A stretch of DNA of 61,490 bases, filler included, from Hausera hauseri (Eukaryota): the NCBI GenBank assembly GCA_046269625.1. It is 12 parts of 12 records of this genome, joined end to end, with 100 filler letters (N's around TTAATTAATTAA, not from the genome) between each part and the next. Parts side by side here need not be neighbours in the genome. Positions count along the whole stretch, not along the records: positions 9,048 to 14,267 come from JBJURY010304722.1; 11 more parts are not named here. One strand, 5' to 3'. How positions within the stretch are numbered: position 1 is the stretch's first letter; the number at the start of each line of letters is the position of its first letter. The notes beneath the pieces were generated by a model. It saw only the letters and a list, made by a program, of their open reading frames with translations, searched no databases and was not told the DNA's origin. Shown one piece after another: positions 3,215 through 17,373 of this stretch. The position numbers were made by a program, and so were the translations under genes.

Positions 3215-4135
3215 GTCACGAGACAAACAGGTCAAAGGTCATCGGTCACGTCGGGAAACGTGTTGTGTCGTGTACAAAATGGCGACTCGGCTTTGTCTGA
3301 AAACGCTGTTAATTGCGAAACAATTTACAAACCTGCTGTACATCCAAGGTTAGCGAAATTTAATATTGTTAAGAACAAAAAATGTTAAAAATGAGAATGA
3401 AAAAAAATGTATATTTGTAAAAGAATTTAATTTTTAGTGTTAATGGTTCTTGTTATACTACGCAGATGGCTTCGAATGAATGCGGTAAAAGTTGTACCCG
3501 AATTGGTGATGTTCATCATCATAAAGAAAATTTACACGAGAAAATACTTCATCCATGTGATGTGTGCGGCAGAACATCCATTCGACGTGACAACTTGAAG
3601 TTACATGTAAAAAGGGATCATGTCGACACCCTAAAGAGACCAGCTCATTCGAATGATTCTGCTTCACAAGAGATCTGCGACCTCAAGTAAAGGTAAAAAA
3701 CGTAAACTAGATCAAAGCCCTACAAGTTTCGTCGAGTCTAAACGAGATGAAAAAACAACGACTGATTCTATCCAGCAACAAGATGAAGCTGACACTTTGA
3801 CTTCTTTACCAGAAGACGTCTACAAATTATACAAAGAAAACTGGACAGCCATAAAAACGTACAGTAACATTGGAAAATACATTTCCACTTACACATATTT
3901 CCACAGACCAGATACTGATCACTGTTTGGATTGGAGCGGTTTTTTAGATAATATTTTCAAGAATCAAACAAAACGCTTCAAGATCAACTACAGCCATCAC
4001 TTTATACTCAGACACTGGGCGACAGGTGAACTTAGATTTTACCACGCGTCGTCAAACAACTCAACTGTACTAGAGAAACCGAAACTCATCAACAATAGAA
4101 AAAACTTTGTAGATTTCGTCAGGGATTTAGAAAAC
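3215..4135. repeat. Right arm of the inverted repeat, cut by the contig end
   Basis: Mirror of 908-1852. Confidence 0.92.
3466..4135 (+). pseudogene. Second C2H2 zinc-finger gene copy, frameshifted and truncated
   Basis: ORFs 3466-3690 and 3653-4183 match the minus-strand copy; first finger lacks its first Cys through a small deletion. Confidence 0.85.
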
Positions 4136-4235
4136 NNNNNNNNNNNNNNNNNNNNNNNNNNNNNNNNNNNNNNNNNNNNTTAATTAATTAANNNNNNNNN
4201 NNNNNNNNNNNNNNNNNNNNNNNNNNNNNNNNNNN
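4136..4235. other. Artificial contig spacer (first of 11 identical 100-bp linkers)
   Basis: 44 N + TTAATTAATTAA (stops in all six frames) + 44 N, recurring at 8948, 14268, 18470, 22701, 28077, 32451, 39533, 45478, 52006 and 57232. Confidence 0.98.
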
Positions 4236-8222: not shown

Positions 8223-8663
8223 TCAAATCAAACTGAATTTTGCCAGTTTCCACATTGGGGATTTCACGAACATCATCTTGTAGCCTTTTATCTTCAGAGT
8301 TAAGTAGCCTTTAGCTCCTTCAGCTGGCAATACTGCTGGTGCTTCTCCATTTGAACGGACAATTTTCCGCATATTGGCCTTGAGAAAAAATAAGGTATTT
8401 CGGATATCTTTAAACAATTCCAAGTCATTGTCGAGTTTTTTCATTGTTTCCTCCATCGCGTACAAATCACTGCAATTGAATTTCTTGGCCAGCAGACCAT
8501 TCTTCACTTGTTTGAGTTTTATCGGTTGCGCCAACGTCAATTGAACAGGCGTTCGTAGAAAGATCAACTTGTACCAATTGTACAACCGGGCCAGTCTAAC
8601 CGAATATTCGTTGTATCTGGACTGACTCGCAGAACTCAAATTGTTTGCTTCATAAGAATTCAT
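8223..8663 (-). CDS. Intact 146-aa Polinton accessory protein, possibly an OB-fold ssDNA-binding protein
   Basis: Clean ATG-to-stop ORF, TATATAA about 60 bp upstream, AATAAA just downstream, degenerate paralog at 11483-11797; product call is inference. Confidence 0.6.
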   Translation of the reverse strand: MNSYEANNLSSASQSRYNEYSVRLARLYNWYKLIFLRTPVQLTLAQPIKLKQVKNGLLAKKFNCSDLYAMEETMKKLDNDLELFKDIRNTLFFLKANMRKIVRSNGEAPAVLPAEGAKGYLTLKIKGYKMMFVKSPMWKLAKFSLI

Positions 8664-9047
8664 TGTCGGAGAGAGATGTAGAGACAGAGCGAAATGAAAT
8701 TATACCTGTCTAACACGTTCTGTTTATATAACAAACGTGTCAACATTGAGTATTTACATAGAGTCATTGTAATAAATTGCCCCAATAAACTCCACGAAGC
8801 TGTTGAATTACACATTACAAAGTCAATGTATTCATTTATTCATAATTACAGTACACACATAAATTGACAGTCTCGTACTTTGTCCATTATTTTCTCTTTC
8901 AAGTTCGTTAATTCACCGCGTACCTTTTCAACAGTATTAAAGTAATTNNNNNNNNNNNNNNNNNNNNNNNNNNNNNNNNNNNNNNNNNNNNTTAATTAAT
9001 TAANNNNNNNNNNNNNNNNNNNNNNNNNNNNNNNNNNNNNNNNNNNN

Positions 9048-9162
9048 ACTGTTTCCCGAGCCAACGTTGGGTCTGTTGTCGAGTCTGTTTGACAGTCTTT
9101 GCCAGTTTGTCGACGCCAGTATACCCGACAGGATGACGTGGATCGAATAACACGTCGCCCAT
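9048..9162 (-). CDS. Polinton retroviral-like integrase, N-terminus only (runs into spacer)
   Basis: MGDVLFDPRHPVGYTGVDKLAK...QRWLGKQ fits the YxDPxxPxxFxGxxKL...WLxxQ start of Polinton integrases; position after ATPase is the expected order. Confidence 0.75.
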
Positions 9163-9305
9163 CGTTGTCGTCGATGGTGTCGGTTTTGCTTGCATTACAA
9201 CAATTAGAACGAAACATAGATGAAAGATTCGGTAAACTGGGATAGAAAAATGAAAACCATGCACCCATATCGCAAATCATCATATATGTACCGTCATTGT
9301 TTATA

Positions 9306-9625
9306 CTATGATGCTGTTGCAAAACCAATGAGTCCACCCAGTAATAACGTGACAATCGGTAGAATTGCACAAAGGAATCCGCCGTCTTGCTGGTATATGA
9401 CCTCTCGTTTCAGTCGTTGACTACGGACGTTGGCAAGGCCAATGAGTCGTTTTCAATACTTTAGTAAATTTTGTTTTCCACTACCAATGTCAACGTGACT
9501 GACAACGATATTGTATAAAATTTCAATCAAATCGTCTAATACAAATTGCGGGAATGATCGCAGCATGTTTCGTTTATGTCTCGTAGGTGCCTTGAGCAAA
9601 GCAATAAAGTACGTCTGACTACATT
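9306..9625 (-). pseudogene. Small Polinton virion/core protein with GG-FL motif and hydrophobic C-terminus
   Basis: Manual translation YFIALLKAP...LIEILYNIV...LLKY*KRLIGLA...QQDGGFLCAILPIVTLLLGGLIGFATAS*; one in-frame stop at 9453. Confidence 0.7.
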
Positions 9626-9879
9626 AAATTCACATGTTTTTTGTGGACTTGTTGATGCTGATGAGACGTAGTTGTTTATAATCGTTGCCACTGAGACGGT
9701 AGTTTGAGTCTAGTTGCTGCTGTTGTTGTTCGAAGCACAGAACTGATTAATCGCTTGACTGTAGCGGTTCGTTTTTATACACGTTTCTTGCCAAACATCC
9801 GCTTGGTAGGTTTACGTTTAATAATTGTTCTTCAAAAATTCTTCATTTTTATCATAATCAAGTCGATTTTCGAATTTGT

Positions 9880-10528
9880 TTATAGACACACACCTTTCTG
9901 ATTGAAAATGTCTGTTTGTACACGCATATCATTGGGACACTGTTGCGCAAAGTCAATGAACAAGTATCCGTGTGGCTCGATCGTAGCATCATGATATGCA
10001 TCTATCAAGTAGGCCCAGTTGTGAGGAAATGCCTGTCGCGCAACATAATCTATCGCGGTCTGATCAGGGAGGTTTTTGAACAACATCAAATAGTGTACGT
10101 TGAGATTTCGTGTTTGGTGCTGGCCGCCCTGATGGAACATCTTTTGCGTAATGAAAATTACAGTTACACCACGGTGCCGTGCAATCTTCGAGAACAGGTT
10201 GTTGAAGTCCGATTGTTTTGTTGCTTCTTAAAATAAATCGTCAATGACAATAATGCACCGTTGCGTAATCGTCCAAACCAGTTCACATCAAAGCCATCTA
10301 TTACCGTTACGGATTTTAATTTACAGAATTCCCGTCGTGTCAGACCGGAATCTCTATCATCACCACTGCTCTGATGTCAGTAAATGTGATTGAACAGCGG
10401 AAATTGGAATATGTCACGGTAGTTCTGCAGCAATTTGCAAACAAAGTGCCTTTTGCCACTTCCACTGCGGCCTACAATATGGAAAATGGCATTATTCTGC
10501 CGCTTCGCGTTGTTAATGCATTTCTCAT
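9880..10528 (-). pseudogene. A32/FtsK-like genome-packaging ATPase
   Basis: Walker A IVGRSGSGK (about 10450-10478), Walker B IIVIDD, then ARHRGVTVIFITQ, LNVHYLMLFKN, AYHDAT..PHGYLFID; frameshifted. Confidence 0.92.
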
Positions 10529-10562
10529 ACATTTTGTTTATAATCACATAAATAGGCGCAGC

Positions 10563-11060
10563 ATGAACACTGTTTCAATCAATCAATCATTATAGCGAAT
10601 ATCAACTACCTCGGACATGTTACCGAGTGTATTAATGCACTGTCGTTTAATCAATGGAAGCCGAGTCAGTATGTCCACAAATGTCCACCGGATATTACAT
10701 GCATCATATTTCCATCGGGAAAGTATCGTATTATAGGTTGTCGCAAACCAATCACAAATGACAGACATCTACCATTTGGAATTGTCATTAACCAAATTCA
10801 ATCAATAACGTAACGACTCAGTAAGATTGCTCACCATCACCACCACTACCATCACGATCAATTAATCTGCACAAATTAGCAGTGGCTACCGAATGTATTT
10901 ATGAGCCCGAACGGTTTCCTGCACTGCGACTAACACTGTTCCCCCCGCTTTGTGTCAATGTGTTTAGCGGTGGAAAAATTGTCGTATTGTGGATTTGGTA
11001 AATCAACTATGAAACGTCTATTAACCAAATTAAACGCCATATAAGTGTTTTACCGAATCA
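10563..11060 (+). pseudogene. TATA-box binding protein (TBP)-like gene
   Basis: Manual translation across frameshifts: IANINY...ITCIIFPSGKYRIIG (repeat 1) and IQSIT...INLHKL...YEPERFPALRL...LCVNVFSGGKIVVL (repeat 2), matching TBP TALIFxSGK and YEPELFPGL...IFVSGKIVL. Confidence 0.8.
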
Positions 11061-11482
11061 AAGTAATATACTCTGGTCAATTGACTATAAATATCATTCT
11101 CATATTCATTCAGACATTACTACGATTTAAAATGACGATAAAACGATTCTGCGCAACAATAATACATCTGACAATGACGAAAGTACAGATTGGTAATGGC
11201 TGTTTTGTAACAAAAATGACAATATCAATTGTCTGGAACCGAAACCTGTCCAACAATTAGTAAAACCGGTATTAAAACGCAAGGGAAAATTATTGGTGGT
11301 AAATGCATATCAGACAAAGATAGAGAGGCAATACTCAGTGGTGATGGTTATGATGATGAAAGTTCCAATTTGTCACGAGAGCTTGGTGGCAACAATTCTA
11401 ATGTCAACTGTCTCGTACCGAAAATAGAACCTGCCCAACAATTAGAAAAACCCAAATTAAAACGACAAGCGTGAATGACTAA

Positions 11483-11797
11483 TGGAATACAGAAACAAAA
11501 ATTAAATTCCTCGCATCAAACACTGACATTTTACCGACATTTTTATGTTGCGAAACTTGGTGATGCTTGAAGTCAATTAAATCTGGACTTAAAGTTGAAC
11601 GAAACGGCCTTACAACAACAATATTTTGTTTAACCTGCCGCAAAGTCTAAACTGATTGATTTTATCGGTTGTGAAATGTCTAATGTGCCCGATGATTTAA
11701 AGTTTCGACTCAACATTTAATTGCAGGGATACAAAAAAAGGACGGTGTCAAAAGCCCAATTTGGCGTTTATCCGAAGCACTTTTTGATTATCAATAA
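11483..11797 (+). pseudogene. Degenerate paralog of the 8223-8663 protein
   Basis: LKSIKSGL...NILF...KFRLNI*LQGYKK..VKSPIWRL versus LKQVKNGL...NTLFF...YLTLKIKGYK..VKSPMWKL. Confidence 0.6.
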
Positions 11798-11824
11798 ATA
11801 TTGCTTTAATTTTCTTCTAGTGTA

Positions 11825-12300
11825 ATGGGCATTTCACTAATAATAATGATAATGAATGATGTAAAGTTTATCTTAACAGATGAAAATGCCTCTGTACCGA
11901 GACGTGTTACAGCAAACAGTGCAGGCCAAGATGGCAATGTGACAATTTCTGACAGCACAATCAAATGTATAACGACCAGGATTCTATTGGCGATTCAACC
12001 CGGTTACTACGGCCAGCTGTTATCGAAAAGCGGATTGGCAAAGCTCGAACTGACGGTTGTGGGTGGTGTCACTGATTCGGACTTTCGTAGTGAAATTACG
12101 TTGCTGCTGAAAAACCAATCGGGGAACTGTATACTTTTCTGAAAGGCAGTACAATCGCACAAATCGTTTTTCTTCGATATGAAGAAGCGGAATTCAGTGC
12201 AATGTCACCGGAACAATGGGGATTGTTTTGCGTCATTGAAGCTACACGAAATGAACGCAAATAATTCTGTTTCGGTGAATTGGACAAAACCACTCATGTA
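11825..12300 (+). pseudogene. dut: Trimeric dUTPase
   Basis: Motifs I SAGQD, II SKSGLA, III GVTDSDFRSEI, IV GSTIAQ (after frameshift near 12130) and degenerate motif V. Confidence 0.9.
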
Positions 12301-12396
12301 TAATTATTGTCATGATAATAATAATTAGTTGTTGTTGTTTTTGTTTTTGTTTTGTGTTATAAACAAAATAATGATTTTGCACATAAATATTGAGTA

Positions 12397-12855
12397 ATGG
12401 AGACTGGATTTATAAATATTGAGGCATTCCAAGACAACAGTGCTCGGTACATAATAAAGGAATTATGCATTGTGGATATCTGTAATGTTTTCCACCCATT
12501 TGTGTACGTATTCGAGCCAGACATTATGTGGAAAAACCTGAGGAAAAGGCGAAAATTACCAATGCGTTTCTCATACAACATCGCAATTGACTTTATAGGC
12601 ACATAGGCATTTCAAAATTGTGCGTAACATGCATTCATGAGCGACATGTGTAGTCGCTTCGATATTCTAAATACAATGTTTTACGTCAGAGATCAAGTTG
12701 GCGGTCAAAAGTTTACGCAACTGCACTCGCAATTTTCCGACCTGCAAATGACGACGTATTCAACATCGATCAACTCTAAAATAATAGTGGTACCTGACAA
12801 TATTACGTGTCCCTATCGTGAACATGGACCGCATTGTGCCTACAAAAATGTTTAG
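12397..12855 (+). pseudogene. DnaQ/DEDD-like accessory protein of the kind common in Polintons
   Basis: INIEAF...YIIKELC...FEP..W and C-terminal CPYREH..HCAYKNV; split over two frames. Confidence 0.55.
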
Positions 12856-13010
12856 CGCTTTGTGTAGACTATGTTTCATTCAAATAAATGTATATGTACG
12901 TGTGTATTTTGTTTGTCGTTTATTTAAACATGTTTCGAACGCAATTTGATTGATTGGTTGGTTTGTTCAAAACTATAAATACAGGTAGGTTGTAATGGTA
13001 AATAATAGTA

Positions 13011-13330
13011 ATGGGAATTGTAAATCAATTGAAACAAATGCAAAATTTTAATAGATTATCACTTCCGGAATTAATACGATGGTGTCAAGTACTTGACAGT
13101 GATTTTGAATTTAAAGAAGATTTAGCATCAATAGCATTGATGACAACAAAATCAGCAGTAGCAGACTGTAACTCTAGAAAATCTAATTACTGCGATAAAT
13201 CAAATGTACAATAACCGATTGTGTAATACAAAGTACTTTAATACAGTGGAAAGGTTACGCGGTGAATTAAAAAACATGAAAGAAAAATAGCGAACAAAGT
13301 ACAGAACTCTCAGTTTATGTGTTATTTTAA
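13011..13330 (+). pseudogene. Unknown Polinton accessory ORF
   Basis: TATAAATA at about 12975 then ATG; the 3' part is homologous to 8850-8947 on the opposite strand. Confidence 0.4.
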
Positions 13331-14367
13331 GAATGAAAAGTGGATACTGTATTTTTAATGTGTGGTCATGTCATTGTGTATCAAAAATTTTCCAACGTAA
13401 CCCACTGCCCAGAATGTAAATACGCTATAACGGAAATTGTACACGTTTATTATGAATAAATGGAAACGAATTTTAATTGACTTGGATGTAATGTGAACAT
13501 GATGATGATAATGTCAGTTTTCCAATACCGATAGAAAGTATAAATAAAGTTAACATTTGCATTTATTTTCCCCAAACATTTTGTTTATTGAGACAAAAAA
13601 CTCTGAAACATTTTCAAACTGCCATACATCAGTTTTATAAAACAAAATTAAACAACAATTCTGTGTAAAGTGTAAATATGCTTAGAAACAGAAGGTTCAA
13701 ATACAAAGTTAAAATATACACTCTGCAAGGCTTTCATCATAATATACACAGATACTTGAGAAAATAAAGCACATATGGACTTGTATGGAATGTCAGCTTA
13801 TAGCTTATTTGGAATGTCAGCTTATACCGTTTTACATCACTACTAAACCTTCCTAATGCATCGTAACGTTCGTAAACTAAAATCTAGATCATTCTGTTTA
13901 TCGACAATTTTCACCAAAATATTCTGCACCTTTAAGTGCTTGACCTTGCTGGAGAAGGAGATGTCCTTAAGCTTCGCATCATGTTCATCGCAAGATGTCC
14001 TTGACTTTCATACCTTGTTCATCCCATATTTCAGACAGAGATGATCTTGTTGACTACAAAAAACTACCTTCACCTTGGGGAATGTCAGGATTCAGGTTAT
14101 GATGGCAGATATGGATAGAGTTTCTGCAATTTCTTCTTAGAGTTCTATCTGGTGACAAAAAATGAAAACATCTTTAAGTATCCAGTATAAGATTACAGGG
14201 TAGAATCACAGTATAGCGTTATTGTGTTATCTAGACACAAGTAATTATAAACTCCACTTGTTAAACANNNNNNNNNNNNNNNNNNNNNNNNNNNNNNNNN
14301 NNNNNNNNNNNTTAATTAATTAANNNNNNNNNNNNNNNNNNNNNNNNNNNNNNNNNNNNNNNNNNNN

Positions 14368-17007: not shown

Positions 17008-17373
17008 TCAATCGAAAATCGTACGATGACGACGTTTGTTTATAGCTGATGAACTCGACGATGCTCTACGGCGTTTCCTCGTCATTAAGCCACTTCCAGC
17101 GATTTGTTTTTTGACTGATTTAACGACTGCCGGTGCAGCGCTTTTTATTTCTGACAAGGCGTGTTCCTTTAGTGATGGTAAAATCGATTTGTTTTCATAT
17201 AGTACGTCCTGTGCCGTTTTTGCTGCAACGACTCCAATACGCTTCAACATTGGAAATGCTAAACGTGCCAGTGTACGCAACCATCCAGAGCCATACGGTT
17301 TACCAACGAAATACGGCAGTTCACCGCCCTGCTGCGGTTTACTGTAAATGGATACGCTTTCGGAATTAATCAT
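17008..17373 (-). CDS. Polinton basic core/membrane-active virion protein located between penton and hexon
   Basis: Intact 121-aa ORF: QQGG.LPYF.G..YGSGWLRTLARLAFPMLK amphipathic segment, second GSG, R/K-rich tail ending TIFD. Confidence 0.8.
   Translation of the reverse strand: MINSESVSIYSKPQQGGELPYFVGKPYGSGWLRTLARLAFPMLKRIGVVAAKTAQDVLYENKSILPSLKEHALSEIKSAAPAVVKSVKKQIAGSGLMTRKRRRASSSSSAINKRRHRTIFD

Follow-up and report, generated by a model that had tools for sequence, protein, structure and literature searches.

A candidate specificity-switched TATA-binding protein of one Polinton clade and a (T/C)ATAAAC(A/G) box upstream of its virion and packaging genes

One clade of Polintons (adintoviruses) carries a family of short TATA-binding protein (TBP) homologs, and we consider it probable, from residue substitutions, a structural model and promoter counts, that the intact protein is a specificity-switched TBP that would read a (T/C)ATAAAC(A/G) box and turn on capsid and packaging genes late. 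The window (the whole stretch of Hausera hauseri DNA that was analyzed, 61,490 nucleotides including filler, from assembly GCA_046269625.1) contains a broken copy of the gene. This copy is a pseudogene and cannot make protein, because it has no start codon and is interrupted by a frame break and a stop. The family bears on whether Polintons run a real infection program, and on how capsid expression could be timed without an RNA polymerase of their own. A dedicated TBP with a matching box is a concrete candidate for an early-to-late switch that would need no helper virus. In addition, such a protein would amount to a minimal TBP of natural origin with switched specificity, which would inform the residue-to-base reading of the TATA box and possibly provide an orthogonal promoter tool.

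The broken gene and the element around it

The window consists of short contigs chained by N44-TTAATTAATTAA-N44 spacers, one at 4136-4235 and 10 further. These are artificial linkers, so that features flanking a spacer are not true neighbors. The piece that holds the TBP-like gene, 9048-14267 (5.2 kb), is only part of an element. A packaging ATPase, which is broken, a core-like gene and the beginning of an integrase lie on its minus strand; on its plus strand, the TBP-like gene is accompanied by genes for a dUTPase and an exonuclease-like protein (Table 1). Of the two adjoining pieces, one has pPolB and the other has capsid and protease genes, and the Polinton hallmark genes of the window are divided among three contig pieces. 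In one public run, 18,614 contigs matched the stretch, with a summed depth of 46,000-150,000 across the TBP-like gene, which points to a much-repeated element, though depth is not a copy number. In the same contigs the depth is 0-5 past 13572, the fall to single-copy level occurring at about 13570. The remainder of the window is mainly retrotransposon debris, which makes an animal host probable; from 18570 to 61490 there are fragments of Gypsy-like and other retrotransposons, including parts of reverse transcriptase and integrase. The first contig piece holds two diverged C2H2 zinc-finger gene copies in inverted orientation (1034-1665 and 3421-4180), which weakly resemble Polinton accessory zinc fingers.

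Table 1. Coordinates of features in the window.
Feature	Position	Strand	Evidence or remark
TATAAACA box before ORF 8226-8699	8721..8728	-	another contig piece, with pPolB
Start of retroviral-type integrase, cut by the contig edge	9049..9189	-	tblastn E 2e-8; relative matches Pfam rve
TATAAACA box upstream of integrase region	9298..9305	-	
Small basic protein gene, presumably core-like	9324..9641	-	tblastn E 8e-30; no Pfam match
TATAAACA box upstream of core-protein gene	9673..9680	-	
TATAAACA box in ATPase 3' end	9877..9884	-	38 bases before ATG of a small broken ORF
Broken A32-like packaging ATPase	9883..10514	-	tblastn E 4e-57 to L011 ATPase; weak Pox_A32 match, E 0.029
TATAAACA box upstream of packaging ATPase	10535..10542	-	~28 bases before the ATPase homologous start
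CATAAATA	10547..10554	+	42 bases upstream of the homologous TBP start
Broken short TBP-like gene, Polinton family (homology extent)	10589..11064	+	tblastn with intact relatives; Pfam PF00352
Piece 1: N-terminal repeat, eroded, plus strand 1 of the second repeat	10589..10810	+	76% identical to residues 1-74 of P0001
Break: stop codon, frame change, low-complexity CAC/CAT-rich stretch (flagged repeat)	10811..10860	+	
Piece 2: C-terminal repeat including stirrup motif	10861..11058	+	Pfam 31.4 bits
Canonical TATAAATA before ORF near 11132	11086..11093	+	
Broken dUTPase	11861..12195	+	Pfam dUTPase E 1.9e-9
TATAAACA box before exonuclease-like gene	12358..12365	+	39 bases before the ATG
Broken gene, presumably exonuclease-like	12394..12846	+	tblastn E 3e-16; no Pfam match
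Canonical TATAAATA	12974..12981	+	37 bases before an ATG
TATAAACA box before major capsid gene	17037..17044	-	40 bases before the ATG; another contig piece

The initial annotation described two TBP half-repeats recoverable across frameshifts, and both of the peptides that it quoted are present, in two different plus-strand frames. Its proposal of TBP homology holds on the Pfam TBP family (PF00352, cut-off 22.9 bits) for the second piece (10825-10998; 31.4 bits, E 1.7e-7), the first piece (10556-10810) alone falling below the cut-off (14.1 bits, E 0.044). A THO-complex match of the first piece (E 0.004) was discarded because the intact relative folds as a TBP. This relative, P0001 (160 aa), matches the window with 76% identity over 10589-10810 and 67% over 10861-11091 (E 6e-54). 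The gene had also been described as intronless, and indeed no intron-sized gap separates the two pieces. Its start had been placed at 10563, where an ATG opens a frame of only 10 codons; the start of the relatives aligns instead at 10589, a position at which the window copy has no ATG. The reading frame of the second piece is interrupted by a stop at 10999-11001, and its stirrup motif is altered non-conservatively. Strong erosion of the first half-repeat is found in intact relatives as well and not in the window copy alone. The CATAAATA sequence upstream of the gene is likely a decayed canonical TATA box. As previously noted, the gene lies head to head with the packaging ATPase, but the homology of the latter begins near 10511-10514, which gives a spacing of ~75 bp and not ~35 bp.

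A family of short TBPs in one Polinton clade

A search with the second window piece returned 7 relatives among 20 candidates, the best being P0001. With a profile of 7 sequences, 840 proteins were found among 2,541 candidates, and the best 120 of these are mostly 144-165 aa long. A profile of 120 sequences, run against 1.84 billion representatives, yielded 66 clusters at E 1e-30 and 1,083 at 1e-10, the latter number including cellular TBPs at lower ranks. Intact relatives score 54-64 bits with the Pfam TBP family. An Atlas search returned TBP-named clusters only, and a viral contig collection contained one distant TBP locus and, as far as we could find, no relative of the ATPase.

Of 77 metagenome loci, 58 belong to the family. 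A Polinton hallmark gene is present in 29 of these 58, and in 17 of the 20 family loci that are at least 4 kb long; in one locus (L013) the ATPase, integrase, capsid-like genes and a polymerase-like gene occur together with the TBP. Pfam matches in the relatives' loci include rve (integrase), DNA_pol_B_2 (pPolB), Peptidase_C5 (protease) and PLA2. The capsid, core, ATPase and exonuclease labels are our presumption from motifs, and the capsid has no Pfam match. The recurrence of the short TBP in many Polintons agrees with the earlier view that the gene belongs to the element. In 17 of the 19 loci with both genes the ATPase lies downstream in tandem. The head-to-head layout of the window is not a conserved feature, since the two genes are on opposite strands in only 1 of the 19. 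Among the 40 + 96 locus proteins scanned there was no match to the TFIIB family, a scan that a divergent TFIIB could escape, and none to an RNA polymerase family. In one sub-branch, a conserved gene of 110-128 aa adjoins the TBP (L013:1788-2135 and relatives in 19 loci); this gene has no Pfam match and no Atlas match above 0.86, and it was not found in the window.

The main tree (78 rows, LG+G4, bootstrap not fully settled) represents large-virus TBPs by three unnamed rows and the family by a minority of its rows, and it contains neither TRF2/TBPL1 nor three long rows that lacked a label. In it, 39 family rows form one clade (100/99) outside the sampled cellular TBPs. A quick tree of 117 rows agrees, with lower support for the family (86). 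The ATPases of family loci also form one clade (21 rows, SH-aLRT 97), in which 20 rows come with a TBP and the remaining one, a contig of 845 bases, is too short for its TBP status to be judged. The short and the long type of TBP occupy separate ATPase branches, and the TBP sub-branches mirror those of the ATPase. By this agreement between the ATPase clade, TBP carriage and the sub-branches, the TBP gene travels with the element. Judging from these trees, the TBP-like gene of the window is inherited within one Polinton/adintovirus clade.

The window gene is intronless and broken, as a recent retrocopy of host TBP that had fallen into the element might be. We regard this origin as extremely improbable, given the 67-76% identity to intact short proteins, the nesting within the Polinton family and the sub-branches that mirror those of the ATPase. 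A retrocopy would be expected to nest within host TBP; instead both window pieces join P0001 and P0008 inside the family clade (100/99), apart from the three animal TBPs, which form a separate group in this tree without TRF2/TBPL1. A canonical host TBP as the source of a retrocopy is refuted by this placement and by the identity.

DNA-facing residues and the (T/C)ATAAAC(A/G) box

The model of P0001 (pLDDT 95) has the saddle-shaped, two-repeat TBP fold. Its top structure matches are to TBP only (Z 13.2, rmsd 2.6, 145 residues aligned) and the first non-TBP match has a Z of 6.3. Two complete repeats with two helices each, as in canonical TBP, are not present: the model has no helix of at least 4 residues within residues 1-84, and both helices of the N-terminal repeat (H1 and H2) are absent. 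A longer sub-branch of the family keeps helix 1 and a short helix 2, which indicates that the erosion is graded.

Residue positions are given in yeast TBP numbering and were scored in 182 family rows, of which 141 are of the short type. F116, F190, F207 and E188 are retained in 95-100% of the family rows, and F99, the remaining one of the four canonical intercalating phenylalanines, is replaced by P in 99% of the short-type rows. V122 has become R in 99-100% and L205 has become N in 100%, I194 is R in 96% of the short-type rows, and V71 is N in 97%. Further changes in the family are T124 to M, N159 to S or T, and V203 to C, with N69 kept; V122R, T124M and L205N are common to all three row groups. 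The acidic C-terminal stirrup, which in TBP binds TFIIB, is retained (E186 in 96% and E188 in 100% of short-type rows). In TBP generally, the N-terminal repeat lies over the 3' half of the box. The altered-specificity mutant TBPm3 of yeast is changed at three positions, I194, V203 and L205, which face the second base pair (PMC1636458), and TBP is described as kinking the DNA at base steps 1-2 and 7-8, by two phenylalanines each (PMC10005294).

This pattern of residues on the DNA face led us to search for a promoter motif in the upstream regions of family loci (214 after dereplication, from 230). ATAAAC is found in 104 of the 214, compared with 17.4 in shuffles. The base before it is T or C and the base after it A or G, which gives (T/C)ATAAAC(A/G), as in TATAAACA, against the canonical TATAAATA. 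The box is one-stranded, with 117 sense and 7 antisense sites, and it peaks at -40 to -31 from the ATG, where 45 sites lie. We found no initiator at a constant distance from the box (4 of 85 contexts). Of 63 box sites, 37 are outside coding frames, and the remainder occur in two frames in which the codons are spelled to fit, the fitting spelling being used in 21/25 vs 9/25 and in 18/36 vs 19/145 cases. Because most sites are non-coding and the rest show box-fitting codon choice, the box is a signal at the level of DNA; an origin as a by-product of conserved peptides is ruled out by these frame and codon counts.

The box stands before 62 of 91 virion and packaging genes and before 13 of 123 other genes, the "late" class having been drawn by gene identity after the per-gene counts were seen and including the integrase and the exonuclease-like gene. 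For individual genes the counts of ATAAAC are 18/19 for the ATPase, 11/15 for the core protein, 7/8 for the major capsid, 8/10 for the penton, 7/8 for PLA2, 7/12 for the integrase, 6/9 for the exonuclease-like gene, 3/5 for the protease and 1/5 for a small virion-protein gene. A canonical TATA is also present before 20 of the 91 late genes. The TBP genes themselves have the box in 0 of 49 cases and a canonical TATA in 27 of 49 (0/42 and 24/42 with corrected starts). The late-gene role proposed in the initial annotation gains a specific correlate, a box at promoter position that marks virion and packaging genes; binding of DNA and recruitment of Pol II by the intact protein are predicted. The box allows Polinton genes to be sorted into likely early and late classes from sequence alone. 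Outside the late class, an LRR gene with a hydrophobic N-terminus (L027, L028, L037, L042 and L043) has ATAAAC upstream in 4 of 5 cases, and is possibly a late host-interaction protein.

In the window, the distance from box to ATG is 38-45 bases for the major capsid gene, the exonuclease-like gene, the small ORF and the core gene. Counted across all of the window, boxes are at chance (18 vs 16.3 expected), and they are clearly enriched only in the contig piece of the TBP-like gene (6 vs 1.3 expected). Two TATA-like boxes had been pointed out near neighboring genes. The one at 12975 is a canonical TATAAATA, and the broken frame that follows it ends in a RING-like Cys/His pattern, read by eye, near 13360-13420. 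The other, assigned to 8724-8730 on the minus strand, is in fact the non-canonical TATAAACA and belongs to another contig piece.

The enrichment was compared among Polintons with different TBPs. Box sites numbered 131 in 21 family loci against 40.4 expected, 8 against 13.7 in 5 Polintons with full-length TBPs, and 26 against 28.6 in 16 in which no TBP was seen. A control set of 25 Polinton loci chosen by ATPase alone, which are partial and include some near-copies, had a family TBP in two cases and a full-length TBP of another type in three. The proportion of late genes with the box in ATPase-chosen loci was 7/12 with a family TBP, 1/21 with a full-length TBP (a figure that includes L060 and L063, which were found by TBP) and 0/70 with no TBP seen. 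Since the elements with a family TBP make up one ATPase clade, the co-occurrence of protein and box amounts to roughly one event and not many, and any clade-specific or host factor would yield the same pattern.

The main alternative, to which we assign a minor share of the probability, is that host TBP/TFIID uses the box as a weak variant of TATA, with a delay of late genes as the result, or that its reader is some other host or element factor. The viral TBP would then be otherwise employed, for example in soaking up TFIIB or NC2 to damp host transcription. Such a role is in keeping with the confinement of box and TBP to one clade and with a stirrup that is kept while F99 is lost. Moreover, host TBP is reported to have been crystallized on the C(-25) variant (PDB 1qn3), and TATAAACG to retain 27% of the activity of TATAAATA with plant host machinery (PMC10005294). 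However, a decoy need not retain three intercalating phenylalanines nor fix new polar residues across the DNA face. Also against this alternative are the constancy of a single non-canonical spelling across the two TBP sub-branches and the avoidance of the box at the TBP gene itself. A further point concerns F99. TRF2/TBPL1, a cellular paralog of full length, has also lost an intercalating phenylalanine and is reported not to bind TATA boxes; by analogy, the resemblance counts against the reading of a TATA-like box by the viral TBP.

The commonest spelling of the box, ATAAACA (82 of 117 sense sites), fits the forkhead core RYAAAYA, and the box might serve host forkhead (Fox) factors and have no connection with the TBP gene. 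We find this very improbable, in that GTAAACA (5 sense, 2 antisense) and GTAAATA (4 and 6) are not enriched and ATAAACG (24 and 1) is, and in that the sites are one-stranded and peak at the distance of a TATA box. It is also improbable, if a little less so, that the viral TBP, in binding the box, does not activate genes but represses them or serves genome packaging or replication. The loss of both N-terminal helices, the lack of a TFIIB-like gene among the 136 locus proteins scanned and the frequent position of the TBP gene just before the packaging ATPase are compatible with such a function; the retained acidic stirrup and the location of the box at core-promoter distance from start codons argue for activation.

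A possible transcription cascade and its relation to known systems

In the activator mechanism that we favor, early genes, among them the viral TBP gene, would be transcribed by host TBP from canonical TATA boxes. The rewired saddle of the viral TBP would bind the variant box, with the remodelled N-terminal repeat reading the C at position 7, and the kept stirrup would recruit host TFIIB and Pol II to a box that is predicted to be poorly used by the host machinery. The loss of helices would shed contacts with host regulators such as TFIIA, Brf1, TAF1 and Mot1, which have their contact surfaces on TBP. We put at roughly even chances the broader proposition that transcription in this clade of animal Polintons is an autonomous cascade of two stages, which uses one orthogonal TBP of 150 residues, its regulatory lobe shed, and a private (T/C)ATAAAC(A/G) box. 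Since other Polinton lineages have different TBPs with different changes on the DNA face, orthogonal TBP-promoter pairs may have evolved repeatedly in Polintons.

The family may be compared with cellular TBPs (yeast 1ytb, human 1cdw, archaeal 2z8u), with which it shares the saddle fold (Z ~13), three of the four intercalating phenylalanines, N69 and the acidic stirrup. It differs from them in a first repeat that is ~23 residues shorter (66 vs 89), in the absence of H1 and H2, in the replacement of F99, V71, V122, N159, I194 and L205, and in an identity of only 21-26%. TBP-like proteins also occur in large DNA viruses (HaV01, klosneuviruses, asfarvirus B263R) and have a viral TBP fold, with 8-19% identity to the sequence of the P0001 model; viruses of this kind usually bring their own RNA polymerase.

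Beta- and gammaherpesviruses encode TATT-binding proteins (EBV BcRF1, KSHV and MHV68 ORF24, HCMV UL87) that belong to a viral pre-initiation complex (vPIC; PMC4893493). As in that system, a virus-encoded protein with a TBP fold is accompanied by a non-canonical TATA variant at late genes, the pairing in Polintons being a predicted one. The herpesvirus protein, as described in the same paper, is large and acts with five other viral factors, whereas the Polinton TBP has ~150 aa and the box is (T/C)ATAAAC(A/G). The two resemble each other in fold alone (BcRF1 row E 2e-3, 15% identity), and no shared vPIC partner gene was seen among the scanned locus proteins. By size, box and partner genes, the family is not a member of the herpesvirus system.

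In a literature search, outside of which lay subscription papers and Repbase reports, we found neither a published account of the short-TBP family or the box nor a mention of TATAAAC, and the Polinton papers searched in text contained no TBP or TATA. "TBP" is used for MELD viruses with adintovirus-like PolB as an abbreviation in the legend of Fig. 5 of Starrett 2021 (PMC8502044), and only there in the portions available. This is likewise a TBP-like gene on a Polinton-type genome and may or may not be of the short-TBP family; the available text (PMC8502044) names no virus, family, structure or promoter for it, and the supplement, to the same extent, gave no match.

Several other Polintons carry TBPs of different kinds, and their sequences suggest that TBP capture by Polintons may have been repeated. 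Full-length TBPs of other types are encoded at L084:10652-11200, L089:2446-2976 and L100:4714-5232, each with changes at yeast positions 122, 203 and 205 or nearby. The Polinton contigs L079-L103, 25 in number, are within bacterial genome bins and are probably host contamination. In L060 (2065-3582), a full-length TBP is adjoined by a second, divergent TBP-domain gene, and the changes on the DNA face (L114 to N, V213 to N and T215 to M) are in part a mirror image, on the opposite repeat, of those in the short-TBP family. A different Polinton lineage (L063:1302-2728, L065, L068, L069 and L072) has a full two-repeat TBP beside a gene for a PC4 coactivator. This lineage is without the TATAAAC box; GTAAGAA recurs at its gene junctions, often overlapping a stop codon, and is present 10 times in L063, and the ATPase sister of the lineage, L098, has ATAAGAA.
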